This document shows positions 863 through 31,377 of a stretch of DNA of 32,000 nt, in pieces (positions within the stretch are counted from its first letter, which is position 1; the number at the start of each line of letters is the position of its first letter). The position numbers were made by a program, and so were the translations under genes. Source of the stretch: Candidatus Kuenenia stuttgartensis (GTDB lineage Bacteria; Planctomycetota; Brocadiia; Brocadiales; Brocadiaceae); contig NZ_LT934425.1 of assembly GCF_900232105.1 (NCBI RefSeq), positions 1,320,001-1,352,000 of the forward strand, written 5' to 3'. Below the pieces are notes generated by a model. That model was not told the DNA's origin. It did not search any database and saw only the letters and a program-made list of their open reading frames with translations.

Positions 863-2485
863 ATGAATTTGGAATTCTTCCAATCTATCGCTATTTCCGT
901 ATCAAACGAACGTTCATTGGATGTGGTTTTTCGTAATATTGTAAATGGGCTTGCTGAAGACTCTAATGTTGTGCTTGCCAGGATTTGGCTCATTGCCCCT
1001 GGTGACATATGTCATACATGTTATTGGCGGAAGGGGTGTCCGGATCAAACTAAATGTTTGCATCTGGTTGCAAGCAATGGAAGATCACTCTATAGTGAAA
1101 AATGGCCAACGTCTATTAAAGGACGTTATAAACGATTTCCCCTTTACACGTATTCCCGGAAAAATGTTAGCGCCTCAGGGAAAATAGGCTATATAGGTGG
1201 AACCGGAAATGCTGTTTTACGCAATGATATCTATGAAAATCCGGATTGGTTATTGGACACTGAATGGGCGCAAAGAGAAAAAATAGCAAGTTTTGATGGG
1301 CAGCCGTTGGTGTTTCGAAATGAAACACTTGGTGTGCTTGCGCTTTTCAGCAGAAAAGAGTTGGATCAGGCATTGTTGATCATGCTCAGGACTTTTGCTT
1401 CGAACGCTGCCGCTGCCATCGCCAATGCAAGAGCATTTGAAGAAATAGAACAATTACATCAACAGTTGGAACTGGAAAATGAGTATCTCAGAGATGAAAT
1501 CAAAGAAGCATATTCATTTGCGGATATTGTTGGCCAAGGTTCATCCTTACAAAAAACACTCCAACAAATAGAACTTGTGGCGCCAACTAACGCAACGGTT
1601 CTCATAAAAGGTGAAACCGGTACCGGAAAAGAACTTATTGCCCTGGCGATTCATCAACGTAGCAAACGAAAAAATAACCCGCTTATTAAAGTTAATTGTG
1701 CTTCAATCCCGAAGGAACTTTTTGAAAGTGAGTTTTTTGGACATATAAAAGGCGCTTTTACCGGGGCAATTAAGGACAGGGTTGGTCGTTTTCAACTTGC
1801 TGACGGAGGAACTATTTTCCTTGATGAAGTGGGAGAAATACCAATAGAGTTACAAGGCAAATTGCTTCGGGTGCTTCAGGAAGGGGAATATGAGATTATC
1901 GGAGAGGGAAAGACTCGTCGTGTTGATGTAAGGGTTATCGCCGCAACCAACAGAAATCTGGAAAAGGAGATGGAATCAAAACAGTTTCGGCAGGATCTTT
2001 ATTTTCGTTTAAGCGTCTTTCCTCTTGAAATAGACCCTCTTCGTAAGAGAAAAGAAGATATACCTCTCCTGGCAAGACATTTTTTGAAGCAAAACTGCCG
2101 GAGTATTGGATTTAAAGAATTATTTCTGAAGAAAGAGCAGATTCTGCAACTTCAGAGTTATGATTGGCCAGGGAATATACGCGAACTGCAAAATGTTATT
2201 GAACGTGCAGTTATTTTATCAAGGGGTGGGGAGTTAAAATTAGATTTGCCGGAAGTATATATTATTAAAAAACCACCAAACCTCCCACAGCGTATTAAAT
2301 CTTCCGGAGAACCCGGTGAGGTAATGACATCCGATGAATTGAAGTCTTTGGAAAAGGAAAATATTCTTGCCGCACTTATTAAAACAAATTGGAAAATTTC
2401 CGGGGCTGGAGGTGCGGCGGAACTTCTCGGAATGAAATCTACAACCCTATCATCTAAAATTAAAGCATTTGGGATTCAGAGGTGA
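863..2485 (+). CDS. Sigma-54-dependent transcriptional activator (EBP), GAF-like N-terminal sensor + AAA+ + Fis-type HTH (FhlA-like subfamily)
   Basis: 540 aa. Walker A GETGTGKE, the sigma-54 contact loop GAFTGA, Walker B FLDEVGE, and RVIAATNRNL...FRQDLYFRL. C-terminal HTH AAELLGMKSTTLSSKIKAFGI. The N-terminal roughly 190 aa is GAF-like (LGVLALFSRKE) and carries a Cys/His cluster CHTCYWRKGCPDQTKCLH. Confidence 0.93.
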   Translation: MNLEFFQSIAISVSNERSLDVVFRNIVNGLAEDSNVVLARIWLIAPGDICHTCYWRKGCPDQTKCLHLVASNGRSLYSEKWPTSIKGRYKRFPLYTYSRKNVSASGKIGYIGGTGNAVLRNDIYENPDWLLDTEWAQREKIASFDGQPLVFRNETLGVLALFSRKELDQALLIMLRTFASNAAAAIANARAFEEIEQLHQQLELENEYLRDEIKEAYSFADIVGQGSSLQKTLQQIELVAPTNATVLIKGETGTGKELIALAIHQRSKRKNNPLIKVNCASIPKELFESEFFGHIKGAFTGAIKDRVGRFQLADGGTIFLDEVGEIPIELQGKLLRVLQEGEYEIIGEGKTRRVDVRVIAATNRNLEKEMESKQFRQDLYFRLSVFPLEIDPLRKRKEDIPLLARHFLKQNCRSIGFKELFLKKEQILQLQSYDWPGNIRELQNVIERAVILSRGGELKLDLPEVYIIKKPPNLPQRIKSSGEPGEVMTSDELKSLEKENILAALIKTNWKISGAGGAAELLGMKSTTLSSKIKAFGIQR

Positions 2486-2599
2486 CCTTAATATTCAGGG
2501 GACACCATACTTAATTATTGATGAGATATTTATTGGGGATTGGAGGGGCGCTTCCCATATTTTTCGATATGCACGTTAAGGTGTGATTTTTTTCTCTGT

Positions 2600-3030
2600 A
2601 TGCCCTGTATGCCAAAAAAAATAGCAAGAGTATGCGCTGTAAATTATCCGCACCATATCACCCAGCATGGAAACAATGGGGGAGACGTCTTTTTTGATGA
2701 CGAAGATAAGGCGTTTTATCTAAAGATCCTCCGTTGCTATAGTAAAAAATTGGGTTTGGATATTTGGGCATCCTGTCTATGACAAACCACATCCATATAC
2801 TTGTGACGCCTGAACAAGAAGAATCCCTTGCCAGAGGGATAGGCGGGACAAATCTGGTATACACACAATACATAAACCGCAAATATAAAAGAAGCGGCAG
2901 GCTATGGCAGAGTCGCTTTTATTCCACGATAATAGAAAAAATGCCATACTTATGGACGGTGATAAGATACATAGAACGAAATCCAGTAAAAGACGGGCTT
3001 GTAAAAAAGGCAGAGCCTACCTGCTTATAG
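2600..3030 (+). pseudogene. HUH/Y1 tyrosine transposase (IS200-like / REP-associated RAYT-like), frameshifted and probably C-terminally truncated
   Basis: There are two ORF fragments. The first reads ...YPHHITQHGNNGGDVFFDDEDKAFYLKILRCYSKKLGLDIWASCL*. The second reads MTNHIHILVTPEQEESLARGIGG...SGRLWQSRFYSTII...RYIERNPV. Together they give a family-typical protein with HUH = HIH and the Tyr in RYIERNP. The junction tgtctaTGAcaaacc (about 2775-2782) needs a 1-nt correction to read ...CL-MTNH. Confidence 0.8.
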
Positions 3031-3068
3031 GCATTACTTCAGATTAAGAAAGGCGCTGGGAGGTTACG

Positions 3069-4817
3069 ATGGTTAAGGCAAAACATGATGTTGCTGTTCT
3101 TGAAAAATGCCCGACGGGCATCAGGGGTCTCGATGAGATCACGAAGGGAGGGCTTCCGAGAGGCAGGACAACCCTGATCTGCGGCGGTGCGGGTTCCGGC
3201 AAAACACTTTTCGCCATGGAGTTTCTCATGCGAGGCGTCAGGGATTACGGAGAACCCGGGGTCTTCATGAGCTTCGAGGAGACGCCGGAGGATCTCGCGA
3301 AGAACTTTGTCTCACTCGGTTTTGATCTCCCGGACATGATGTCGCGTGGTCTCATCGCAACGGACCACGTCAAAATCGAGCGAAGTGAGGTTGAAGAGAC
3401 GGGTGAATACGACCTGGAAGGATTGTTCATCCGCCTGGGCAGCGCCATTGATTCCATCGGCGCGAAGCGGGTTGTCCTGGATACCATAGAAGCGCTTTTC
3501 TCCGGGTTGTCTAATGCCGCTATCATTCGGGCAGAGCTTCGCCGGCTTTTTCACTGGTTGAAAGAGCGCGGTGTGACGGCCATCGTCACGGGGGAAAGCG
3601 GCGACAAGATGCTGACACGTTACGGGCTCGAAGAATACGTCGCCGATTGCGTGATCTTCCTCGACTTTCGCATCGAGGAGCAAATTTCTACCCGTCGCCT
3701 GCGTATTGTCAAGTACCGCGGCTCGTCTCACGGCTCCGATGAGTATCCTTTCCTGATAGACGAGAGCGGCGTTTCTATCCTGCCAATCACTTCCCTGGGG
3801 CTCGACTACCCCGTTTCCACGGAGCGCATCTCCACTGGCATCCCCAAGTTGGATGCCATGCTTGACGGGAAGGGGTACTACCGGGGCAGTACCATCCTCG
3901 TATCAGGTACAGCGGGTACAGGCAAAACAAGTTTGTCTGCTGCCTTTGCCGATGCCGCTTGCCGGCGAGGTGAGCGCTGTCTCTATTTTGCTTTCGAGGA
4001 ATCGCCCAGCCAGATCATCAGGAACATGGGTTCAATCGGCATGAATCTCGCCCGGTGGGTGAAGAAGGGGCTTCTCAAGTTTCATTCAGCCCGGCCTTCG
4101 CTTTACGGCCTTGAGATGCATCTTGTCACCTTCCACAAGGTGATCAATGAGTTCAATCCCCAGGTTTTCATTGTAGACCCGATCAGCAACCTGAGCGCTG
4201 CGGGAAAAGCATCGGAGGTTAAATCCATATTAACGCGCCTGATCGACTATTTGAAAATGAAAAAGATATCTACTTTCCTTACCGACCTCACCCATTTTGG
4301 AGGCAGCCTTGAACACACAAGCGAGGAGATATCCTCTCTGATCGATACATGGCTTCTCCTCCGGGATATCGAACTCAATGGTGAACGCAACCGGGGCATC
4401 TACATTTTGAAGTCACGCGGCATGGCCCACTCCAACCAGATTCAGGAGTTCCTGCTCACGAACCAGGGCATTGACCTTATCGATATCTATACCGGTCTTG
4501 GCGAGGTATTAACCGGCAGTGCCAGGGCCTCCCAGGAAGCCAGGGAAAAGGCCGCTGAGTTGGTACGCCGGCATGAGGCGGATCGCAGGTTCCGCGAGCA
4601 GGAGTGCAAGAGGAATGTCCTGGAAACAAAAATCGCAGCCCTCCGTGCCGAGTTTGATGCGGAATCTGAAGAGTTGCATTTGATGGCGGAAGGAGAGCGA
4701 AAAAGACAAGCTGTTCTGGCAGAAGGTCGTTTAGAAATGGCGCATCTTCGCAAGGAGGGGACATTCAGCAGTCCGGCGAAGCGCTCGAAAAAAAAGAGAG
4801 AAAGGAGGGTAAAGTGA
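3069..4817 (+). CDS. kaiC: KaiC-family double RecA-like ATPase/autokinase with a roughly 100-aa C-terminal coiled-coil plus basic tail extension
   Basis: 582 aa. The N-terminus [32 protein letters not shown] is the CI Walker A (residues 39-46). The second Walker A is SGTAGTGKT (279-287). Catalytic EE pairs sit after each (FEE 69-71, FEE 309-311). The phosphosite-equivalent motif is [13 protein letters not shown] (Ser422-Ser423). Residues from about 485 to 582 are heptad-like and charged ([22 protein letters not shown]...) and end in [12 protein letters not shown]. Confidence 0.93.
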
Positions 4818-5149
4818 AAGCTGTCTCATCAGGAAAGAGGAAGAAAGCAAAGACCGATTTTACGGAAGGGGTCTGGAATCTCCGGTTGTATGTAGCCGGT
4901 CAGACCCCGAAATCAATTACGGCCTTTGCTAATTTAAAGAGGATCTGCGAAGAGCACCTTGCGGGTAAATACTGCATTGAAGTGATAGACCTTTTAAAGA
5001 ATCCTCTGCTTGCTAAAGGTGACCAGATTATTGCCATACCTACACTGGTAAGGAAGCTCCCTGAACCGCTTAAAAAGATTATCGGAGATCTGGCTAACAC
5101 AGAGCGCGTGCTGGTGGGACTCGACATTCGTTCTGTCTCCGGAGGATAA
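4814..5149 (+). CDS. kaiB: KaiB (thioredoxin-like clock protein), copy 1
   Basis: 111 aa. The core [27 protein letters not shown]...[51 protein letters not shown] matches canonical KaiB. The GTG start overlaps the kaiC stop (GTGA at 4814-4817). AAAGGAGGG SD at 4801-4809. Confidence 0.9.
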
Positions 5150-5278
5150 AATCAACCCTTCGACTATCTCCGGTCTCAAGCCCGGGGTTTGCTCAGGGTT
5201 GATACGGATCGGCACTTTTACCTCGTCCTGAAGGCCGGGGCTTGGCAACGTCGAAGTATCAATTTTGGAGTAACAGCC

Positions 5279-5638
5279 ATGGAGAGGAACAGAGGTAAAA
5301 CGAGCACTGAGAAATTCGAAAAAGCGGCGACGAAGTTAGGCCAGGCAAAGCACGTTTTTCGGCTGTATGTTACAGGGATGACCCCAAAGTCAACCCGGGC
5401 AATCGCCAATGTCCGGAAACTCTGCGAGACATACCTGGCAGGGCGCTACGAACTCAACGTGATAGACATCTACCAGCAGCCCAATCTGGCCAAGGAAGAG
5501 CAGATTATCGCCACCCCAACGCTCATCAAAAAACTCCCACTGCCATTCCGGAGGTTTATCGGCGACATGTCGGATACGGAAAGGTTTCTTGCAGGCATAG
5601 GTCTGGAACCCAAAGAATTCATGAGTACGAACCAATGA
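5279..5638 (+). CDS. kaiB: KaiB, copy 2 (diverged paralog)
   Basis: I trimmed the track ORF 5189..5638 to the ATG at 5279, which has GGAG 9 nt upstream. The core [27 protein letters not shown]...[50 protein letters not shown] is KaiB-like. Roughly half of core positions are identical to copy 1 by eye. The stop overlaps the next start (ATGA at 5635-5638). Confidence 0.88.
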
Positions 5639-7614
5639 GCAAATCGTATAGAACACGACAACAACTTTTGGATGAGTTGCAGGAACTTACGTCGCGGATG
5701 ATGGAAGCGGAGGAAACTCTGCGCGCTATCCGGGGCGGTGAGGTGGATGGACTGGTTGTCTCAACGGCGGAAGGAGAGCGGGTCTTTACACTATCGGGCG
5801 CCGAGCATCCTTACAGAGTCATGGTCGAAACCATGAACGAAGGGGCCGTCACTCTGGCCTCCGACGGCACGATCCTTTTCTGTAACCAACGTTTTGCAGA
5901 TATCGTCCAAAGATCTCTGGGAAAAGTAATGGGATCTTCAATCTACCAATACATTTCATCAACAGACCGCCAATTATTTGAGGCATTGGTTGAGCGGGGT
6001 TTGAAGGGGAACAGTAAGGCGGAACTGGCCTTGCAGACCGGAGGTGAAAATACTGCACCTGCCTTACTTTCCATAAGCACCCTTCAGCACACGGATATGC
6101 CCGCTGTGGTGTGCATGGTGGTTACCGACCTGACGGAACAAAAGCGCAATGAGGAGATGTTGGCGGAGGAAAAACTGACAACTCAAATCCTCAATCAAGC
6201 TGCGGAAATATTTGTTCTCTGTGACCCCCAGGGCCGTATACTCCGTGCAAGTCAGTCGACCAGTAGTCTCTTCGGTAGAAGCCCACTCTTCCAGGTGTTT
6301 GACGAGGCATTTCACCTCCTCTATCCAGACGGGATGCCATTTATCCTTCTCCCTGCAATGAGTGGCAAATTCCTTCACGCGGTTGAGGTCAATTTCAAGC
6401 ATGGGGACAACGAGACTTATTCTTTTCTGTTGAGCGCAAACCCACTTATTACTCATAAAGGCGCCATCGGTATTGTTGTCGTAATGGTGGACATCACCGA
6501 GCGCAGGAAGATGGAAGACTCACGGCAAAAAGACCATGACAAACTCGAGCAGCAGGTGGAGGAGCGGACTCTCGAACTTCGGACGGCTCTTTCTGAAATA
6601 AAAACATTGAAAGACCGACTCGAGGCCGAGAATATTTACTTACGTCACGAGAACAAAAGGAGACATCACTTTGCCCAAATTCTTGGGCAAAGCGATAGTC
6701 TCAAGTATGTTCTCTATCGCGCGGAACAAGTTGCCCCCACGAATGCAACTGTCCTCATCCTTGGTGAGACCGGTACGGGGAAGGAGTTGATCGCTTTCGC
6801 CATCCATGACATGAGCCCCCGCAAGGAACGCCCCATGATCACGGTCAACTGTGCTGCCCTGCCGGGCAATTTAATTGAGAGCGAATTATTCGGCCGGGAG
6901 AAGGGGGCATTTACCGGGGCTGATACCCGGCGGATCGGCCGGTTCGAGGTCGCCAATGGTTCCACCCTTTGCCTGGACGAGATCGGGGAGCTGCCGCTGG
7001 AGTTGCAGGCAAAGCTACTCCGGGTGATTCAGCATAACGAGTTTGAGCGCCTGGGGTCGCCCCATACCATCAAAGTTGATGTACGGATAGTGGCAACGAC
7101 CAATCGAAACCTTGAGGAAGAGATCCGCAATGGCCGTTTCCGGCAGGACCTTTACTATCGGCTCAACGTCTTCCCCATCACTGTCCCACCACTGCGGCAG
7201 CGGAAAGAAGACATCCCTCTGATGGTACACGCCTTCGTAGAGCGATACTCCAGGAAATTGGGCAAACAGATCACGTCGATCCAGAAGGAGGCGATGAAGG
7301 CGCTGCAGGATTATCCATGGCCTGGGAACGTCCGGGAGCTGGAGAGCATCATTGAGCGAGCCGTGATCTTGTGCCCCGGGCCGGTTTTGCAACTTGCAGA
7401 TAAACTGGAGATTTCATCGCCCGCATTTTCATCCACCGTGAGGACATTGGAAGAGACGGAGCGAGACCAAATTCTTAAAATCCTTTCTGAAACCCGATGG
7501 CGCATCGAGGGAAAGAACGGGGCCGCAGCGATTCTGGGCATCCACCCGAGTACCTTAAGAGCGAGGATGCATAAACTCGGGATAGTCCGGCCGGAGACAA
7601 AAGAACCCAATTAG
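5635..7614 (+). CDS. Sigma-54-dependent transcriptional activator: N-terminal coiled coil + two PAS-like domains + AAA+ + Fis-type HTH; no receiver domain
   Basis: 659 aa. The N-terminus reads [35 protein letters not shown]-like blocks: [25 protein letters not shown]...[13 protein letters not shown] and [20 protein letters not shown]...[16 protein letters not shown] coiled-coil linker is followed by [21 protein letters not shown] and [10 protein letters not shown]...[17 protein letters not shown] is [21 protein letters not shown]. Confidence 0.93.
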
Positions 7615-7773: not shown

Positions 7774-7788
7774 TGGCAGACCATTTGC
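7774..7788 (+). promoter_or_regulatory. Sigma-54 (-24/-12) promoter candidate TGGCAG-ACCAT-TTGC
   Basis: It matches TGGCAC-N5-TTGC at 9 of 10 consensus positions with exact GG-N10-GC spacing. It is the only well-spaced match I found on either strand. The predicted start near 7800 is 2 nt before the ATG at 7802. Confidence 0.55.
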
Positions 7789-7801
7789 CAGTAGTATCCT
7801 T

Positions 7802-9158: not shown

Positions 9159-9272
9159 TCGCAAGAGGAGATTGGAAATGAAGCGGTGAACTTTGGGAAA
9201 AACTATCACAAGGTGGCTGCGAAAGGTCATGCCTTTTAAAGTAACGAACCATTTAAAGAAAGGAATATTACG

Positions 9273-9560: not shown

Positions 9561-9613
9561 AGTAATGGCCGCACGTAAGGCTTCGTTTATGTACAAGATT
9601 GTGAATTTGTTGT

Positions 9614-9670
9614 AAGCCCCGCAACTTTACAGAGAATGTTCCTGTGAGTTCGGGATAATCTTCCTAACAA
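9614..9670 (+). promoter_or_regulatory. Conserved 57-nt leader motif, copy A (candidate cis-regulatory RNA hairpin)
   Basis: It aligns without gaps to 12368-12424 at 43 of 57 positions by hand count. The invariant core is GAATGTTCC...GTTCGGG...TAACAA. Imperfect stems are CCCG/CGGG, AACT/AGTT and ACAG/CTGT. It ends 15 nt before the ATG at 9686. Confidence 0.4.
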
Positions 9671-9685
9671 TAGGCGAAGAGGGAA

Positions 9686-9883
9686 ATGTTAAAGAAATAT
9701 GGAGTAGGTCTGGTATTTATTGGTGCACTGATGTTTGGTGTTGGTGCGGTAAATACAGTGTTGGTTGGCTCTGTTATGGCTACAAGTCATGAAGAGGGAC
9801 GTGAATGCGAAAAATGCGGACACTTGCCAACAAAACCTGAAAATGATTGCAAATGTGTATGTCACGCAAAGAAGGGTTATTAA
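9686..9883 (+). CDS. Small exported Cys/His-rich peptide (65-aa precursor, roughly 33-aa mature)
   Basis: The signal peptide MLKKYGVGLVFIGALMFGVGAVNTVLVGSVMA is followed by TSHEEGRECEKCGHLPTKPENDCKCVCHAKKGY. The N-terminus is paralogous to 12137..12316. A purine-rich SD is present. Confidence 0.6.
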   Translation: MLKKYGVGLVFIGALMFGVGAVNTVLVGSVMATSHEEGRECEKCGHLPTKPENDCKCVCHAKKGY

Positions 9884-9935
9884 TATCCCGGACAAAGACA
9901 TACATCATCTTTTGCTGTATCAATGGGTCAGCTAA

Positions 9936-9968
9936 ATCCTGCAATCAGTTATCAACTGATTGCAGGAT
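9936..9968. repeat. 33-bp palindrome (15-bp perfect arms, 3-nt centre), copy A
   Basis: The sequence is ATCCTGCAATCAGTT-atc-AACTGATTGCAGGAT. The arms are identical to those at 12724-12756. There is no flanking T-run on either strand. Confidence 0.85.
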
Positions 9969-10998: not shown

Positions 10999-11355
10999 AT
11001 GGCGGATAACCAAACTACAGAAAAAGCGGGAGACATATTAAAAATTGACGAAGCGCTTGGATTGCTGGATAGAGAATTAAAAGGAAAGAGCGGTGAGATT
11101 AATCGGTTGATTAGTGAAAAATATTCAAATCTCAAAGAGATTATGAGTGGAGCAACACACACGGGCAGGGAAGCGATAGAAAAAACATGTCATACTTTGG
11201 AAGAGGCTGTTAAGAGAGGAGAGGAGAAAACGAAAGAAATAGGGATGGAAATTGATCGAAAAGTTCATGCTAATCCATGGTTGGCGGTAGGCATTGCTGC
11301 CGTTAGTGGTTTCCTCTTATGCTATATCATAGAAGCAGGCAAACGTTCAAAGTGA
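10999..11355 (+). CDS. DUF883 family (ElaB/YqjD/YgaM-like) C-tail-anchored stress protein
   Basis: 118 aa. A charged helical body is followed by the family-typical tail HANPWLAVGIAAVSGFLLCYII. AAAGGAGAG SD. Confidence 0.8.
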   Translation: MADNQTTEKAGDILKIDEALGLLDRELKGKSGEINRLISEKYSNLKEIMSGATHTGREAIEKTCHTLEEAVKRGEEKTKEIGMEIDRKVHANPWLAVGIAAVSGFLLCYIIEAGKRSK

Positions 11356-11552
11356 TTAGCAGGTTTTTCGTTCTTTGATAATGCATTTTGCAAGCGAGAA
11401 TTTAAGCCGGGAATTAATGCCTGCTTAAATTAGTCCTTCGGCGGCTTTTTAAAGTAAAGCAAAGAGCCTCTTTACTCTAAATTCGCAACATTGAATTTCC
11501 TATATGTTGGAATATTCAAAACTGAAAAAGATTCAGGAATAGGTAAAAAATC

Positions 11553-11832
11553 GTAACTATTCAGCGTAAACGATACACGGCTCGTTCCCAAACTCCAGTT
11601 TGGGAATGCATTTGTTCGAGAAACTCCGGTTTCTCGCCTGTTTGCTGATAGATAGGGAATAAAATCACAGGGTTAAGACAGTTTGTAATTTGTCAAGTCA
11701 GACCCTCACTGGAAACAAAGTTTCCAGTGCCATTACGTTCCCAAACAGGCACTTCACTATGTTCAGTACAAGGTTTGGGAACGAGTTGCGCTCTGATCTC
11801 CGGTAGTTTAATAAATTACGCTGAATAGTTAC
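11553..11832. mobile_element. 280-bp MITE-like element with 17-bp perfect terminal inverted repeats and an 8-bp target-site duplication
   Basis: The TIRs are GTAACTATTCAGCGTAA (11553-11569) and TTACGCTGAATAGTTAC (11816-11832). The flanking direct repeat is AAAAAATC (11545-11552 and 11833-11840). There is no ORF. Four internal perfect hairpins lie at 11585-11606, 11617-11636, 11707-11729 and 11736-11783. Confidence 0.65.
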
Positions 11833-11883
11833 AAAAAATCAGGAATAATCTAAACACTTAACCTAATATAACGGAGAATTACT

Positions 11884-12033
11884 ATGCTTTTAGTTATAGC
11901 TGCTGTGTTGATCATATTGTGGATTCTGGGTCTGGTCACTTCCACCACCCTGAGCGGTTTCGTTCACATTCTTCTGGTGATCGCAATCGTGGTCATCGTG
12001 ATTAATATCATTCGCGGACGAAGACGTCCGTGA
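11884..12033 (+). CDS. lmo0937-family-like mini membrane protein (49 aa)
   Basis: Below the track cutoff. The product is MLLVIAAVLIILWILGLVTSTTLSGFVHILLVIAIVVIVINIIRGRRRP. The pattern W.LG......L.G..HILLVIA...........RGRR is as I recall for this family. GGAG SD 7 nt upstream. Confidence 0.65.
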   Translation: MLLVIAAVLIILWILGLVTSTTLSGFVHILLVIAIVVIVINIIRGRRRP

Positions 12034-12136: not shown

Positions 12137-12316
12137 ATGTTTAAGAAAATTGGCATTACAGCGGTGTTTGTAAGTGCGTTACTGTTTAGTGCTGGTGTCG
12201 CTAGTACCTTTGCAAGAAATTCTGATTGTCCGGACAGTTGCAAGTGCCCGGACAATGTAAAATGTGCAAAAGATTGCACAAAGGACAAAACAGATCATTG
12301 TACGTGCAAACATTAG
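12137..12316 (+). CDS. Small exported Cys-rich peptide (59-aa precursor, roughly 33-aa mature), paralog of 9686..9883
   Basis: I trimmed the track ORF 12041..12316 to the ATG at 12137, which follows GAAAGGAGG. The signal MFKKIGITAVFVSALLFSAGVASTFA is followed by RNSDCPDSCKCPDNVKCAKDCTKDKTDHCTCKH (7 Cys, 2 His). Confidence 0.6.
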   Translation: MFKKIGITAVFVSALLFSAGVASTFARNSDCPDSCKCPDNVKCAKDCTKDKTDHCTCKH

Positions 12317-12367
12317 TATATTTTAAAATTATTTTGTCATAGGATTTTTTTTTACGAAAACTTTGAT

Positions 12368-12424
12368 AAGCCCAGCAATCTTACCGGGAATGTTCCAGGT
12401 GGTTCGGGTTAAACTCTTTAACAA
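12368..12424 (+). promoter_or_regulatory. Conserved 57-nt leader motif, copy B
   Basis: See 9614-9670. It has the same length, ends at the same TAACAA, and is followed by a purine-rich SD and the ATG at 12440. Stem positions differ from copy A in a partly compensatory way (AACT/AGTT becomes AATC/GGTT). Confidence 0.4.
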
Positions 12425-12439
12425 GAGAAGGAGAAGTAA

Positions 12440-12700
12440 ATGTCAGATAAATGTACAGACGAGAGGAAAAATATTAATATTGCTCAGGTACCGGCTGTAG
12501 TTAAGGCTGCAATTGAGAAGGAAACTGCCGGCTGCACCATCAAGAAAATAGTGAAAAAAGAGGCCGATGGCAAAACGTGTTATGCAGTCGAGTGTGTAAA
12601 GAACGGTGTGGAAAAAAAGCTCAAATTTACAGAAGAAGGCTCTATTGTGACAGACAAAGGGGAAAAACCCAAGAGTGGCGCAGGTACTAGCTGTTGTTAA
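12440..12700 (+). CDS. PepSY-like small protein ending in GAGTSCC
   Basis: 86 aa. VPAVVKAAIEKETAGCTIKKIVKKEADGKTCYAVECVKNGVEKKLKFTEEGSIV matches the PepSY-like pattern (P..V...I.KE..G..I........DGK..Y.VE....G.E....F...G). No signal peptide is evident. Confidence 0.55.
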   Translation: MSDKCTDERKNINIAQVPAVVKAAIEKETAGCTIKKIVKKEADGKTCYAVECVKNGVEKKLKFTEEGSIVTDKGEKPKSGAGTSCC

Positions 12701-12723
12701 AGCTAAATTGAGAAGGAAACTGC

Positions 12724-12756
12724 ATCCTGCAATCAGTTATTAACTGATTGCAGGAT
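12724..12756. repeat. 33-bp palindrome, copy B
   Basis: The sequence is ATCCTGCAATCAGTT-att-AACTGATTGCAGGAT. The arms are identical to 9936-9968 and both are followed by AAGG. Confidence 0.85.
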
Positions 12757-12940
12757 AAGGAGGCCGTAAAAAAAACGAAATATGACGCGGATAAGTAATG
12801 GCCTGGGAATTTTTTATTATACCGTAGTAATCGGCAGTCTATCGTCGGCAAATTGCAGACTGAGGACTGAGTGGTAACACCATTTCACTGAAATTATTTA
12901 TGGATATTTATTTCACCAAAAGACCAAAAAAGGAGGTACC

Positions 12941-15537: not shown

Positions 15538-16940
15538 GAGAATAATACGTTCTCCTCTTGAAGCGGAAATAGAAAGGATAGGTAAAATGATCTATAAAAG
15601 CATAAAGAAAAACATAGGGTTTGGCTTCCTCGCACTCTTTGGGTGCTGTTTGTTCTTGCCCACCCTTGCTAATGCACGGGTTGGTATAACGGCTACCGAT
15701 AAAAAATATATTATTCTGCAAGCCGTCATCATGTTTCATTTGCAACACCCAGAAACGATGAAAATGGTTTTATAACCATATCATATTGCGGTACCTGTGC
15801 TTGAGCTATTTTTTGTAGTTTTACTTTCGAGTCGAAAACATCTGGCATTTCTGTTTCTGTACCGGTTCAAATGTATATGGCCATCCAAAAGGTATCAGAT
15901 TGTAATTTACAAGGTCTCTGCTTGTCATTGCAGGGGGGGGGCTCCGCTTGTCATTGCGAGGGTCTTTTCCGAAACAATCAATATACTACGAGATATTTTG
16001 TGACATAAGAGACGCCATATCGCGGGAGAAAGAAGCAAATTAAGGGTGGCTCAAGGGCTAAAAAAATAGAATTAATTAATGGAATGAATGCAGGATGGAA
16101 GGATCTCTATTACGGTTTATGAGGTTGCTTCGGAAAAGACCCTCGCAATGACAAAACGGATACCCGCGTAATGGCAAAATGAGTCATCAGTCATCATGTT
16201 TCATTTGCAACACCCAGAAACGATGAAAAATGGTTTTATAACCATATCATATTGCGGTACCTGTGCTTGAGCTATTTTTTGTAGTTTTACTTTCGAGTCG
16301 AAAACATCTGGCATTTCTGTTTCTGTACCGGTTCAAATGTATAGGGCCATCCAAAAGGTATCAGCTTGTAATTTACAAGGTCTCTGCTTGTCATTGCAGG
16401 GGGGGGGCTCCGCTTGTCATTGCGAGGGTCTTTTCCGAAGCAATCAATATACTACGAGATATTTTGTGACATAAGAGACGCCATATCGCGGGAGAAAGAA
16501 GCAAATTAAGGGTGGCTCAAGGGCTAAAAAAATAGAATTAATTAATGGAATGAATGCAGGATGGAAGGATCTCTATTACGGTTTATGAGGTTGCTTCGGA
16601 AAAGACCCTCGCAATGACAAGCTGAAAAGACCCTCGCAATGACAAAACGGATACCCGCGTAATGACAAAATGAGTCATCAGTCATCATGTTTCATTTGCA
16701 ACACCCAGAAACGATGAAAATGGTTTTATAATCATATCATATTGCGGTACCTGTGCTTGAGCTATTTTTTGTAGTTTTACTTTAGAGTCGAAAACATCTG
16801 GCATTTCTGTTTCTGTACCGGTTCAAATGTATAGGGCCATCCAAAAGGTATCAGCTTGTAATTTACAAGGTCTCTGCTTGTCATTGCAGGGGGGGTTCCG
16901 CTTGTCATTGCGAGGGTCTTTTCCGAAGCAATCAATATAC

Positions 16941-18999
16941 CCCATGTTCCGGAAAGAAATTACTAAAGTCAAATTTGGCAAACACTTATAAACATTGATT
17001 CTGCGACTACATGTCTTTTGGAAGTCTTTTAATTACTGGCCGAAAACAACATTGGACATTCCAAGTTTTTCCAATAGCATTTGTGTGACGGCGGGAAGTT
17101 TCACGGCTTTCTTTAAGGTTTCACCGGTATTTTTAGCCTCAAGAGTGGCGATATCTATATCTTTGAACGGCGCATAGAGTTCCTTTGAGTTTAAAAAATC
17201 TTTTTCTCCTATTGCCTTTCGTTGGTTTGATAGATAACGGTTTATAAAATATGCCAGGATGCAGATAGTATAGACGGCTTTAACATGTGCCTCGGTATTG
17301 ACAAAGAAGGGCCTGATTTTTAAGAACGATTTTACATTTTTAAAGACATCTTCTATTTTTGTCTTGTCCCGATAGGCTCTAACTATAGATTGGGGTTTTG
17401 CTTTAAACGCACCTCCATCTTCCCGTTCTGTATGGTTAGTGATAAAAACACATACGCCATCCAACAATCTATCTGCGGCTATAACATCAGTTAACAGCTT
17501 GATTTCTATTTTGAAACTTTTGACGGATTTGACCTGCCCGTTTTTCAGTCTATGGGTAACGGTGATGGACGTCAGAACAGGGTCTTCGAAATATTTATGA
17601 ATCTTTAACCTTTTCAGCTCATCTACAATGCGGCTCTTTGTTGCGTCATATTGCCGGTCTCTTTGGGCATTTTTAAGGTTTTTATTCTCTTCTTTGAGAT
17701 AATCCTTAAAAAAGGTTATTTTCTCGTCTCTATTATTGCGGTCTTCTATAAATAAAGTGGGATTAAAACCGGTAATAAAACGCTTGTTTCCTATGACGCC
17801 ATTGTCATGGTAGTATAATTCATCATCATAGTTTAAAAACCCTTGCGGGATAGGTATATCGGAGGCGTCCTTATCTTCTATGGATAACCCATTAAGAGAC
17901 TTTAAACTGACACCGCAAGAGGGTATCTGATTTCTATCCAATGCCGAGATGTATTTGAGTTTGGCTTCTTCTATCAAATTGGCATTGTCCTCAGAGATTA
18001 TGCCTCTGTCAAATACAAGGGTGACGTTTTTATCAGTCAATTTGAATCTGGTTTTACAGGCATTGATATTCTGTTTGAGGGTTTTTACCTCAGCGGTGTT
18101 CCCGGGGAATACATCCCATTTGAAAGGATATCCCTCAGAGTTGATAAGAACACCCAGTAAGACCTGCCGCCTGCCATGACACTCTATTTTGCCCTTGCCA
18201 AATGCCGATAGATCACAGTTATATCCCACAAAGTAGGAAGTAGTTAGGTCGTAGTTGATAAATTTATAGGATTCCGGACGTTTCCAGAAGGTTTGGTTAA
18301 AAAGGTGGTTCTCTATAGATATTTTGTTTTTGTGTATTTTATCTAATTCATAATAGATTTTATCGTCATTTAGGCCTGAAAGATCAATTTTAAGAATGTC
18401 CTCCAGCGCGCTCTTTTTCGCCCAATGAGGAATGGAATAATGAGAACACGGATCGGTGCACCTGTTAATAGTCAGTATCTTTGCAATCATATTGGTAGGA
18501 AGGGCGCCTGCAGTGACATCGTAGTCAAAAGCCTGATCAAGCTGCCACTGGTTCCACAACTCATTAACAACGGCTATATCGAGATATGCCCTGCTTTCCA
18601 GGACTGCAACGTCTTTGAGCTGAGTCTGCAATTGATCTGTGTTTTCAACTGTTTTACATATCAGTTTGATTTGCTCGGCTTGAATATCGGAAAGTTTCCC
18701 GATGGGCCAAAGTATTCTTTTTCTGACCTTTTTGCCATCCCTGTAGGATTCGGCAATAGAGTAAGATTTATAGGTTTTCCCTTTGTATTTAGAATCGCTA
18801 TAAGTAAGGTGCATAATGTAGTCCCAATATTCTTTGACTACACTATCATTAATAAAATATTTTGTCAAGTCAGTATTTATAGGGTTATAAAGGATTTGTA
18901 TTAATAAATAGGCCATTTATTCTGCGACTACATATTATTTTGAATTTGTGGAAACCCGCTTAAAATAAGGATTTTGTTGAAATCTTTCCGGAAAGGGGG
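16941..18999 (-). mobile_element. IS1634-family (IS4 superfamily) insertion sequence, 2059 bp, with 6-bp target duplication ATATAC
   Basis: It interrupts repeat unit 3 exactly. Uninterrupted units read CAATCAATATACTACGAG. Here ATATAC occurs at 16935-16940 and 19000-19005. The imperfect TIRs are CCCATGTTCCGGAAAGA... (left end) and the complement of ...TCTTTCCGGAAAGGGGG (right end). Confidence 0.85.
17033..18916 (-). CDS. IS1634-family DDE transposase
   Basis: 627 aa, intact. The N-terminal signature KGKTYKSYSIAESYRDGKKVRKRILWPIGKL is typical of IS1634-type transposases. The true start may be the internal Met at 18814 (MHLTYSDSKYKGKTY). Confidence 0.88.
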   Translation of the reverse strand: MAYLLIQILYNPINTDLTKYFINDSVVKEYWDYIMHLTYSDSKYKGKTYKSYSIAESYRDGKKVRKRILWPIGKLSDIQAEQIKLICKTVENTDQLQTQLKDVAVLESRAYLDIAVVNELWNQWQLDQAFDYDVTAGALPTNMIAKILTINRCTDPCSHYSIPHWAKKSALEDILKIDLSGLNDDKIYYELDKIHKNKISIENHLFNQTFWKRPESYKFINYDLTTSYFVGYNCDLSAFGKGKIECHGRRQVLLGVLINSEGYPFKWDVFPGNTAEVKTLKQNINACKTRFKLTDKNVTLVFDRGIISEDNANLIEEAKLKYISALDRNQIPSCGVSLKSLNGLSIEDKDASDIPIPQGFLNYDDELYYHDNGVIGNKRFITGFNPTLFIEDRNNRDEKITFFKDYLKEENKNLKNAQRDRQYDATKSRIVDELKRLKIHKYFEDPVLTSITVTHRLKNGQVKSVKSFKIEIKLLTDVIAADRLLDGVCVFITNHTEREDGGAFKAKPQSIVRAYRDKTKIEDVFKNVKSFLKIRPFFVNTEAHVKAVYTICILAYFINRYLSNQRKAIGEKDFLNSKELYAPFKDIDIATLEAKNTGETLKKAVKLPAVTQMLLEKLGMSNVVFGQ

Positions 19000-19587
19000 A
19001 TATACTACGAGATATTTTGTGACATAAGAGACGCCATATCGCGGGAGAAAGAAGCAAATTAAGGGTGGCTCAAGGACTAAAAAAATAGAATTAATTAATG
19101 GAATGAATGCAGGATGGAAGGATCTCTATTACGGTTTATGAGGTTGCTTCGGAAAAGACCCTTGCAATGACAAGCTGATACCCTTGTAATGACAAAATAA
19201 GTCACCAGTCATCATGTTTCATTTGCAACACCCAGAAACTATGAAAATGGGTTTATAGCCATATCATATTGCAGTACATGTACTTGAGCTATTTTTTGTA
19301 GTCTTATTTTCGAGCCAGATGACTGGTTTGGCAGGTTTAATTGTAATTTAGATGCATCAGGTTGTGTGTTTGGATGCTACGTAGACGTAGCAAATGATGA
19401 GAGAATAAAAGGAGGTATTCCGAAAGACCGATCACTTGAGAATAAACGACTTACCGGCAAAAATGATATTCGGGAATATGCTTAGAAGTCTTCGTAAATA
19501 ACTTGAACAGATTAAAAGACCGCTGTATCGCAGATGCACGGTTAGCAAAGAGACATTATATAATCAAACACGGGAAAGGAGTATATC

Positions 19588-22174: not shown

Positions 22175-22253
22175 TGCTAATCCCTTTAACCACTTATAAA
22201 GTTTGAACCGAATAATTATAACGAAAGGGAAGCGGGAGCTTCCAATGCACTTG

Positions 22254-22279
22254 CGTTCCCAAGCCGGAGCTTGGGAACG
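22254..22279. repeat. REP-like hairpin CGTTCCCAAGC-cgga-GCTTGGGAACG
   Basis: 11-bp perfect stem. It shares the GTTCCCAA/TTGGGAAC arm core with hairpins inside the MITE at 11585-11606 and 11736-11783. Confidence 0.7.
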
Positions 22280-22426
22280 AGGGTATTAATAAGAAAAATA
22301 TTCAATATTCAATTCTCAAATTTTTGCTCAGAACAAGTGACAAATAAATTCCAGATGCCAAACAGGAATTTTGTGATTTGGGCATTGGAATTTTACCGCA
22401 ATACGTGGCCCCATCATACGCATAAA

Positions 22427-31176: not shown

Positions 31177-31342
31177 TTCAATTGCTTTCTTAAATTAAAT
31201 CAGGCCGGGCTTTAAAAAGACAAAAACCCAACGCATTTTATACACGCCTTAATCCCATAAATGCTAAGTTATTTCTGATATTTTTTACACGGAGTCAAAT
31301 ATCTAAAGCCGGCAATCGGCAATTTACAGTCGGCAAATTGCA

Positions 31343-31377
31343 GACTGTGGACTGTAGACTGTAGACTGTAGACTGCT
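31343..31377. repeat. Heptanucleotide tandem repeat (GACTGTR) x5
   Basis: The units read GACTGTG GACTGTA GACTGTA GACTGTA GACTGCT. They are preceded by the 19-mer GTCGGCAAATTGCAGACTG (31329-31347), which also occurs at 12844-12862, where two GACTGAG units follow. Confidence 0.8.

Follow-up and report, generated by a model that had tools for sequence, protein, structure and literature searches.

Narrowly distributed leader and 3' palindrome elements, predicted to act in mRNA, frame a mosaic family of small genes in Candidatus Kuenenia

A 32,000-nucleotide (nt) stretch of the Candidatus Kuenenia stuttgartiensis genome (NCBI RefSeq assembly GCF_900232105.1, contig NZ_LT934425.1, positions 1,320,001 to 1,352,000 of the forward strand; hereafter the window) contains two small open reading frames (ORFs), ORF A and ORF B, each of which is preceded by the same kind of leader and followed by the same perfect palindrome. 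These leader and palindrome elements are real, were not previously catalogued and are narrowly distributed. The reading that we favour, if only modestly, is that they are family-specific 5' and 3' elements of the mRNA with a role in stability, termination and possibly translational control, and that duplication and recombination have spread them. The leader appears to be a cis-acting RNA element that is new, uncharacterised and limited to few lineages, and the palindrome is supported as a shared 3' hairpin selected for pairing.

The two units, cassettes A and B, had been placed at 9614-9968 and 12368-12756 by a preliminary description of this DNA, and both were confirmed at these coordinates, as were the common architecture, the leader match and the identical palindrome arms on which that description was based. 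Aligned without gaps, the leaders (9614-9670 and 12368-12424) agree at 43 of 57 positions, against an average of 14.6 matches (standard deviation 3.4) for random pairs of 57-mers from the window. Their core, GAATGTTCC-N5-GTTCGGG, was found in the window only at 9634 and 12388. A covariance model of the leader, searched with filters off, returned only these two copies in the window (94 bits for B and 71.5 bits for A, the next best match scoring 15 bits), and no further diverged leaders were detected by it before the other stress genes of the window. The palindrome, ATCCTGCAATCAGTT-N3-AACTGATTGCAGGAT, occurs exactly twice, none being expected from shuffled sequences; its 15-bp arms are identical in both copies and the central triplet alone differs (ATC in A, ATT in B). 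The stop codon is separated from the palindrome by 52 nt in cassette A and by 23 nt in B, and the tails that follow the palindrome, AAGGTTGAAAACGG and AAGGAGGCCGTAAAAAAAACG, contain no T-run, as first described. Each ORF has a purine-rich Shine-Dalgarno (SD) sequence upstream, and similarity between ORF A and ORF B is undetectable in a direct comparison.

The preliminary description had also proposed that the leader is a shared structured element folding into a three-segment hairpin, with partly compensatory differences between the two copies, and had named further copies and covariation as the checks to be made. Further copies were found in other strains, in a second Kuenenia species and in metagenomes, giving a total of 25 distinct leaders and 15 distinct palindromes; 23 of the leaders were aligned, and they bear out both the hairpin and the compensatory differences. 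The model comprises helices P1 (CCCG/CGGG), P2 (AAYY/RGUU), P3 (a 6-bp inner stem with the loop AAUGUU) and a weak P4 (UUAAA/UUUAA). Over its 19 pairs, 90.6% of 437 cells are able to pair, compared with 27-57% in controls in which the pairing partners were slid, and five pairs are changed on both sides, for example C-G to U-A in P2, and A-U to G-C and the series U-A/C-G/A-U/G-U in P3. The covariation score was reached by none of 500 column shuffles. For P1-P3, pairing amounts to 92.9% on the sense strand (31 G-U cells) versus 85.7% on the antisense strand, and leader A is folded by RNAfold at -20.2 kcal/mol (z = -2.5). Whereas the 5' strands vary, the apical loop and GUUCGGG, the 3' strand, hardly change, which suggests that a sequence-specific partner is involved besides the structure. 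As is generally asked of a structured cis-regulatory RNA, the structure is supported by compensatory changes, in sequences that are closely related and hold few independent events; the leader is most simply read as a cis-acting RNA in the 5' untranslated region (UTR).

This leader had not been recognised as a member of any named family, and that assessment stands: a search of the whole window against Rfam 15 gave no match at the gathering score, and a permissive search (E <= 10) around both cassettes gave only matches at chance level (E of at least 2.9, at most 17 bits). A search of the literature on transcription start sites, UTRs or RNA motifs of Kuenenia returned nothing relevant. Two candidate features of the leader were rejected. 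A pseudoknot between UGUU of the loop and a downstream AACA finds no support in three leaders with the loop AUAUUC and one with UAACUA, which show no compensation; and an upstream ORF starting at the ATG of the loop has no SD, differs in frame among copies and has ATA for ATG in three of them.

The distribution of both elements is restricted. Proteins identical to those of ORF A and ORF B are encoded in numerous Candidatus Kuenenia stuttgartiensis assemblies, among them the complete genome of strain CSTR1 (CP049055.1), which carries five leaders and four palindromes within 20 kb. An origin of the window in Bacteroidota, first suspected from a TAnnTTTG-like motif and a large ORF pair, is ruled out by these exact matches. 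When an 18-base leader pattern was searched in one genome per species, true copies were obtained only from Kuenenia sp. Bin_40 (four leaders) and one Planctomycetota metagenome-assembled genome, the other three matches being due to chance. Homologues of ORF B number only 29, all of them at least 69% identical, and the contigs that carry them (ENA/Logan) yielded additional cassettes. A loose palindrome pattern run over JGI metagenome contigs matched 19 loci, namely 14 true palindromes and five non-palindromic chance matches in coding DNA; all 14 true palindromes lie within this type of cassette, with a leader upstream on the same strand wherever the contig was long enough. Every leader collected precedes a member of one mosaic ORF family, and the order leader, ORF B, palindrome, superoxide dismutase (SOD), catalase is preserved in relatives. 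Within the sequences collected, both elements are thus specific to one gene family of Candidatus Kuenenia and very close relatives. A viral or mobile origin was rejected as well, the matches of both patterns in viral contigs being chance matches without flanking leader features.

The palindrome is predicted to fold at about -24 to -25 kcal/mol (z = -6.6 to -8.8). Two of its 15 distinct copies have both arms changed with pairing kept, at position 9 (A-U to G-C, in Bin_40) and at position 15 (U-A to C-G, in the relatives L042/L048); one-arm intermediates are present among the copies, and the remaining changes are G-U pairs or loop-proximal mismatches. A repetitive extragenic palindromic (REP) site was among the roles first suggested for it. 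The tens to hundreds of dispersed copies typical of REPs and bacterial interspersed mosaic elements were not seen in the JGI metagenome scan, outside which the complete K. stuttgartiensis genome lay, and no intact REP-associated tyrosine transposase (RAYT) flanked by REPs was found in the window, where only an 88-amino-acid (aa) Y1 fragment occurs with no palindrome copy beside it. Since all 14 true metagenome copies belong to cassettes of the family, the case against a genome-wide REP is strong but not exhaustive.

A canonical intrinsic terminator is not evident at the palindromes of the window either: the stem is present and the tails AAGGUUGAAAACGG and AAGGAGGCCGUAAAAAAAACG have no sense-strand U-run, and a terminator scan gives a weak signal, on the minus strand of palindrome B only. 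In one relative (L054, Logan ERR4863026, 1111-1210) a leader and an ORF B homologue are followed, at the site before SOD, by a 6-bp hairpin, CCGTTG-ACACCGC-CAACGG, with a U-rich tail (UUUAUUUAU / TTTATTTAT). This replacement of the palindrome by a different hairpin with a U-rich tail points to a terminator or 3'-end role of the site after ORF B, and to the palindrome as a separable module. Two other ideas were discarded. As an upstream site for a sigma-54 activator (bEBP), the palindrome would lie 131-163 nt before the next leader in tandem arrays, but no GG-N10-GC element follows it; and short Logan contigs, considered as a proxy for transcript ends, proved to be multi-gene genomic contigs.

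The ORFs that follow the leaders are built from a small set of modules in three combinations: a signal/transmembrane (TM) anchor with one or two Cys/His-rich units, an anchor with PepSY-like repeats, and a stand-alone PepSY-like domain ending in SCC. The anchor has the consensus MLKK[Y/F/C]G.GL.F.GALMFGV... and the Cys/His-rich unit is CEKCGHLPTKPENDCKCVCH; most copies of the type with anchor and PepSY-like repeats have two to four repeats, and more are found in a 439-aa protein of L048. ORF A has no Pfam match, and ORF B matches PepSY_like with E = 0.0023, below the Pfam cutoff. The two ORFs had been called unrelated, which is right as far as direct similarity goes and fails at the level of the family: a 300-aa protein of strain CSTR1 joins the N-terminus of ORF A (92% identity over 39 aa) to four copies of the ORF B domain (67-74% identity), which makes ORF A and ORF B modules of a single recombining family confined to the genus. 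Leaders are not sorted by the type of ORF that follows, as 8 of 23 have their nearest leader (up to 98% identical) before the other type; leader and ORF modules have been reshuffled among paralogues. The first 16 coding nt (ATGTTAAAKAAATKTG) are common to both types in most copies, and tandem paralogues have some 90 nt in common at their 5' ends and some 100 nt at their 3' ends. The shared flanks are thus accounted for largely by descent, tandem duplication, recombination or gene conversion among paralogues, and independent recruitment is not needed.

Upstream of the leaders, promoter-like sequences of more than one kind are found at a fixed distance before AAGCC. The class I sequence, TTGTCA-N17-(G)AATAT/AAAACT-N6-A|AGCC with an A/T-rich stretch further upstream, is conserved before leaders of K. 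stuttgartiensis, Kuenenia sp. Bin_40 and metagenome relatives. The class II sequence has the geometry of an extended -10 element (TGTGAATT-N-TTTG(T/C)-A|AGC), and its motif TTGTGAATT-N-TTTG(T/C)-AAGC is repeated before the leaders of several relatives; a third variant has TAATTT with the distance to AAGCC unchanged. The -35/-10-like or extended -10-like motifs keep this fixed distance in all variants, and from them we infer that transcription starts at the A of AAGCC, which would leave only 2-3 nt of mRNA ahead of the hairpin. A sigma-54 promoter in or just upstream of either leader was considered and rejected (criterion: TGGCAC-N5-TTGC, with GG and GC 10 nt apart, 12-24 nt upstream of the start): no GG-N10-GC element is present, and the nearest candidate lies at 7774-7789. 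The features of both cassettes are listed in Table 1.

Table 1. Positions in the window of the elements of cassettes A and B; promoters are predicted from sequence.
Feature	Position	Strand	Description
Predicted class II promoter, cassette A	9600..9613	+	TGTGAATTT (extended -10-like), then GTTGT; predicted start at the A of AAGCC, ~9614-9615
Leader A (5' UTR)	9614..9685	+	P1-P2-P3 hairpin at ~9617-9654 with apical loop AAUGUU; then CUUCCU pyrimidine tract, UAACAA and purine-rich SD
ORF A, 65 aa	9686..9883	+	Signal/TM anchor MLKKYGVGLVFIGALMFGV... and one Cys/His-rich unit CEKCGHLPTKPENDCKCVCH
3' palindrome A	9936..9968	+	Perfect 15-bp stem, 3-nt loop; -25.3 kcal/mol, z = -8.8
Predicted class I promoter, cassette B	12334..12367	+	TTGTCA (12334-12339), 17-nt spacer, AAAACT (12357-12362), 6 nt; predicted start ~12368-12369
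Leader B (5' UTR)	12368..12439	+	P1-P2-P3 hairpin at ~12371-12408; then GUUAAAC-UC-UUUAAC and SD AAGGAG
ORF B, 86 aa	12440..12700	+	Single PepSY-like domain, conserved cysteines, C-terminal SCC
3' palindrome B	12724..12756	+	Perfect 15-bp stem, 3-nt loop; 185 nt upstream of the SOD gene

Under the favoured reading, a full unit would consist of a sigma-70-type promoter, a leader of about 72 nt, a module-built ORF and a perfect 15-bp stem-loop. The leader would open with a three-part hairpin of about 40 nt, 2-3 nt from the predicted 5' end, which may protect the transcript against 5'-end-dependent decay, and its near-invariant loop and 3' strand would probably be the binding site of a shared trans-acting factor, for now a candidate. 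The CUYUUUAAC segment could pair weakly with the SD or the AUG region and give translational control that is possibly sensitive to temperature or to a factor, and the 3' stem-loop would end the transcript or stabilise it against 3' exonucleases. The combined outcome would be a coordinated, high and post-transcriptionally tunable output of small envelope stress proteins. Several points weigh against this account. The start site, the 3' end and the transcription of the leader itself are predictions; all copies are close paralogues or orthologues with a mean column identity of 87%, the independent compensatory events probably number only about 4-6, and the high conservation of the leader may in part reflect recent duplication or gene conversion. 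Pairing in the leader favours the sense strand only modestly, and the palindrome favours neither strand (6 versus 5 G-U), which leaves the palindrome compatible with a role at the DNA level. A stabiliser acting through structure alone would not need so conserved a loop and GUUCGGG strand, and P4, a weak A/U helix that pairs in 84% of cells, is absent from leader A of the window. Finally, some tandem leader-ORF units reach the next leader without a palindrome, and one relative (L054) has no palindrome at all.

Translational control could also be the main task of the leader rather than an accessory one. Downstream of the hairpin the order is (A/U)UAA(A/U/G)C, a pyrimidine tract, UAACAAG and a long purine SD, and in most leaders a YUUUAAC heptamer is complementary, at 6-7 of 7 positions, both to the GUUAAA directly 3' of the hairpin and to G-UUAAA at the start codon. 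For different copies and temperatures RNAfold predicts either an anti-SD helix or one that sequesters the AUG, which is compatible with translational control and is a lead only. On this basis the leader might switch translation in response to a ligand, a protein or temperature, and would then represent a new class of regulatory RNA and not mainly a stabiliser. In such a switch YUUUAAC would pair with GUUAAA when translation is ON, and with the start-codon G-UUAAA or the purine SD when it is OFF; the state of P1-P3 or a bound factor would decide between them. The constancy of the AAUGUU loop and the 3' strand while the stems covary, and one A-U to G-C compensation in P4, would agree with such a device. 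Its helices are, however, weak, being short and A/U-rich; both partner hexamers are near-invariant, so that covariation is uninformative for them; leader A of the window cannot form P4 (3 of 7 pairs), the start of ORF B (AUGUCAGAU) pairs poorly, and no candidate for the ligand or the binding protein emerged. We consider this switch unlikely. Somewhat more doubtful is a broader version, in which the hairpin with the AAUGUU loop and the triple GUUAAA / UUUAAC / AUG-UUAAA would form a sensor of a factor, a ligand or temperature that coordinates a fast-diversifying family of small Cys-rich and PepSY-like envelope proteins in anammox bacteria, the conserved 5' and 3' modules serving also as homology arms for shuffling.

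Three other explanations were weighed. The leader might regulate at the DNA level, as an ECF-like (extracytoplasmic function) sigma promoter (GGAAT ... G(T/A)T) or as an operator of a response regulator or repressor, with GTTC-N7-GTTC direct or GAA-TG-TTC inverted repeats. Its location in a stress regulon, 30-70 nt ahead of the ATG, the 11-bp spacing of the invariant blocks GAATGTTC and GTTCGGG and the modest strand asymmetry of pairing are in keeping with this. When read against the ECF pattern (GGAAC/GGAAT, 16-18 nt spacer, (C)GTT), the B-type leaders give GGAAT-N16-GTT, which resembles SigR/SigH-type promoters, but the A-type leaders give AGAAT/GGAAT-N16-GAT, with GAT in place of the -10-equivalent GTT, and the intervening positions covary as pairs. 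Covariation outside the invariant blocks extends over three nested bulged helices, a pattern not predicted by protein-DNA recognition, with 31 G-U cells on the sense strand; the leader contains no GG-N10-GC sigma-54 element, and separate -35/-10-like motifs are conserved upstream. The fixed distance of these motifs and the nested covariation together disfavour the conserved block as a promoter or operator, and we hold this explanation to be improbable. That the likeness of the cassettes is a residue of recent duplication and gene conversion, with no function past that of ordinary UTRs, would suit a family that is very young and narrow, with a mean leader identity of 87% and, in A-type units, palindrome flanks that are duplicated too. 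It accords badly with substitutions that concentrate in the stems and are compensated there while the loops are fixed, and with the persistence of the elements over at least two Kuenenia species and several metagenome lineages despite exchanged promoters and ORFs, and it appears very unlikely. Slightly weaker still is the case for mobile or site-specifically recombining units of the integron-cassette, miniature inverted-repeat transposable element (MITE) or REP/RAYT type, with the palindrome as the site of recombination or transposition. Both a recombination site and a unit that swaps ORFs had been suggested at the outset. The latter holds in an evolutionary sense, as leaders 97-98% identical precede different ORF types; the palindrome segment is, moreover, an insertion or deletion between relatives, and the window contains a truncated piece of an IS200-like Y1 transposase (2764-3030). 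As a mechanism it is not borne out, and a recombination site has little in its favour: no integrase, recombinase domain or intact Y1 transposase was found among the window proteins, nor any other mobile-element signature. The attC sites of integrons have an imperfect R''-L''/L'-R' structure with a GTTRRRY core and a neighbouring integron integrase, and the palindrome is perfect, with a 3-nt spacer and no attC-type features. It was seen only inside the family in the metagenome scan and in none of the viral contigs, and homologous recombination among tandem paralogues suffices for the shuffling.

The window (G+C 43%) shows the genomic setting of the cassettes. An upstream cluster (863-7614) comprises, in order, a GAF-type sigma-54 activator, the IS200-like Y1 transposase remnant (an 88-aa C-terminal fragment), KaiC, two KaiB genes and a PAS-type sigma-54 activator. 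It is followed by small stress genes: ABM, CsbD, BON, DUF3309, a coiled-coil protein, ORF A, an apolipoprotein-like lipoprotein, a membrane protein, DUF883, DUF5670, a second Cys-rich ORF, ORF B, a Fe/Mn SOD exported by the twin-arginine translocation (TAT) pathway, DUF3185 and catalase. Given these neighbours, the cassettes therefore belong to an island of general and oxidative stress genes. A KaiBC module with sigma-54 activators is observed here in a non-photosynthetic anammox bacterium, and it may control the stress island. A sigma-54-like promoter candidate, TGGCAGACCATTTGCC (7774-7789), precedes the ABM-domain gene, the first past the PAS activator, by about 12-30 nt; the number of sigma-54-like matches in the window is not above chance.

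Compared with the window at about 9160-9270, other K. stuttgartiensis strains (as in CSTR1, CP049055.1, positions 1-9900 of L001) have an extra segment of about 8 kb that contains duplicated BON/DUF3309 genes, three more leader cassettes, a protein with an ice-binding domain and several small ORFs. This extra segment marks the stress island as a hotspot of tandem duplication and deletion between strains.

Other features were noted in the same region. Just before leader B, an ORF at 12137-12316 encodes a small Cys-rich secreted protein of 59 aa (MFKKIGITAVF...CPDSCKCPDNVKCAKDCTKDKTDHCTCKH) with its own ribosome-binding site and without a leader, and its orthologue in Bin_40 keeps this position relative to the leader. 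A 41-nt repeat, AATCGGCAGTCTATCGTCGGCAAATTGCAGACTGAGGACTG, lies upstream of SOD (12829-12869); a copy of 88% identity at 31314 runs into a tandem of the heptamer GACTGTA, the region spanning 31314-31375. Between the cassettes, 530 nt without an ORF (11355-11884) contain several hairpins (e.g., CGTTCCCAAACTCCAGTTTGGGAATG); a 53-nt segment of this stretch is repeated in inverted orientation at 22229-22281, beside a second DDE transposase, and may be a MITE or a remnant of an insertion sequence. Tandem units of about 466 nt, up to 99% identical, occur at 15689-17016 and 18985-19314 with ORFs of 62-68 aa and inverted repeats of 30-40 nt (TTGCTTCGGAAAAGACCCTCGCAATGACAA), and flank an IS4-like DDE transposase gene on the minus strand (17033-18916).

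Routine genetics is not yet possible in anammox planctomycetes, and their post-transcriptional regulation is almost unstudied. A 5' UTR element supported by covariation and a conserved 3' hairpin provide testable handles on the expression of stress genes in these bacteria, and are tied to genus-specific, module-shuffling small envelope proteins encoded beside SOD, catalase and the KaiBC/sigma-54 cluster. They might also be of use as expression parts (stabilising UTRs) in an industrially important anammox organism. The narrow distribution of the elements limits their wider significance.

Among known systems, the Kuenenia cassettes resemble integron cassettes only superficially, in that short differing ORFs, each with a palindrome, stand in tandem arrays. 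In contrast to these, the units have their own promoter-like motif and 5' leader, their ORFs are modules of one family and not unrelated cargo, no integrase is present, and the palindrome lacks attC core sites and extrahelical bases. With leader RNAs and thermometers (ribosomal-protein leaders, fourU/ROSE) the Kuenenia 5' UTR shares covarying stems, conserved unpaired nucleotides and weak A/U-rich helices that may occlude the SD or AUG; it differs from them in a main hairpin that excludes the SD, in having no Rfam match and in its restriction to a single genus. The likeness to stabilising 5' stem-loops such as those of the E. coli ompA 5' UTR and the B. subtilis aprE and ermC leaders is closer, since the Kuenenia hairpin is predicted 2-3 nt from the 5' end and well upstream of an exposed SD, and the leader goes with small, presumably highly expressed envelope and stress proteins; the 5' end is here a predicted one, the loop and 3' strand are invariant across paralogues and the element is common to a whole gene family, unlike in those examples. 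The 3' stem-loop, in turn, is comparable to REP-type and other 3' stabilisers and to U-tract-less (I-shaped) terminators in its position 20-70 nt past the stop codon, its compensatory changes and the absence of a U-tract, and is set apart from REPs by being confined to one family rather than dispersed, by its perfect, near-uniform 15-bp stem and by the lack of an intact RAYT. Taken together, the elements would be most like a combination of ompA-type 5' stabiliser hairpins with REP-like or I-shaped 3' stem-loops.

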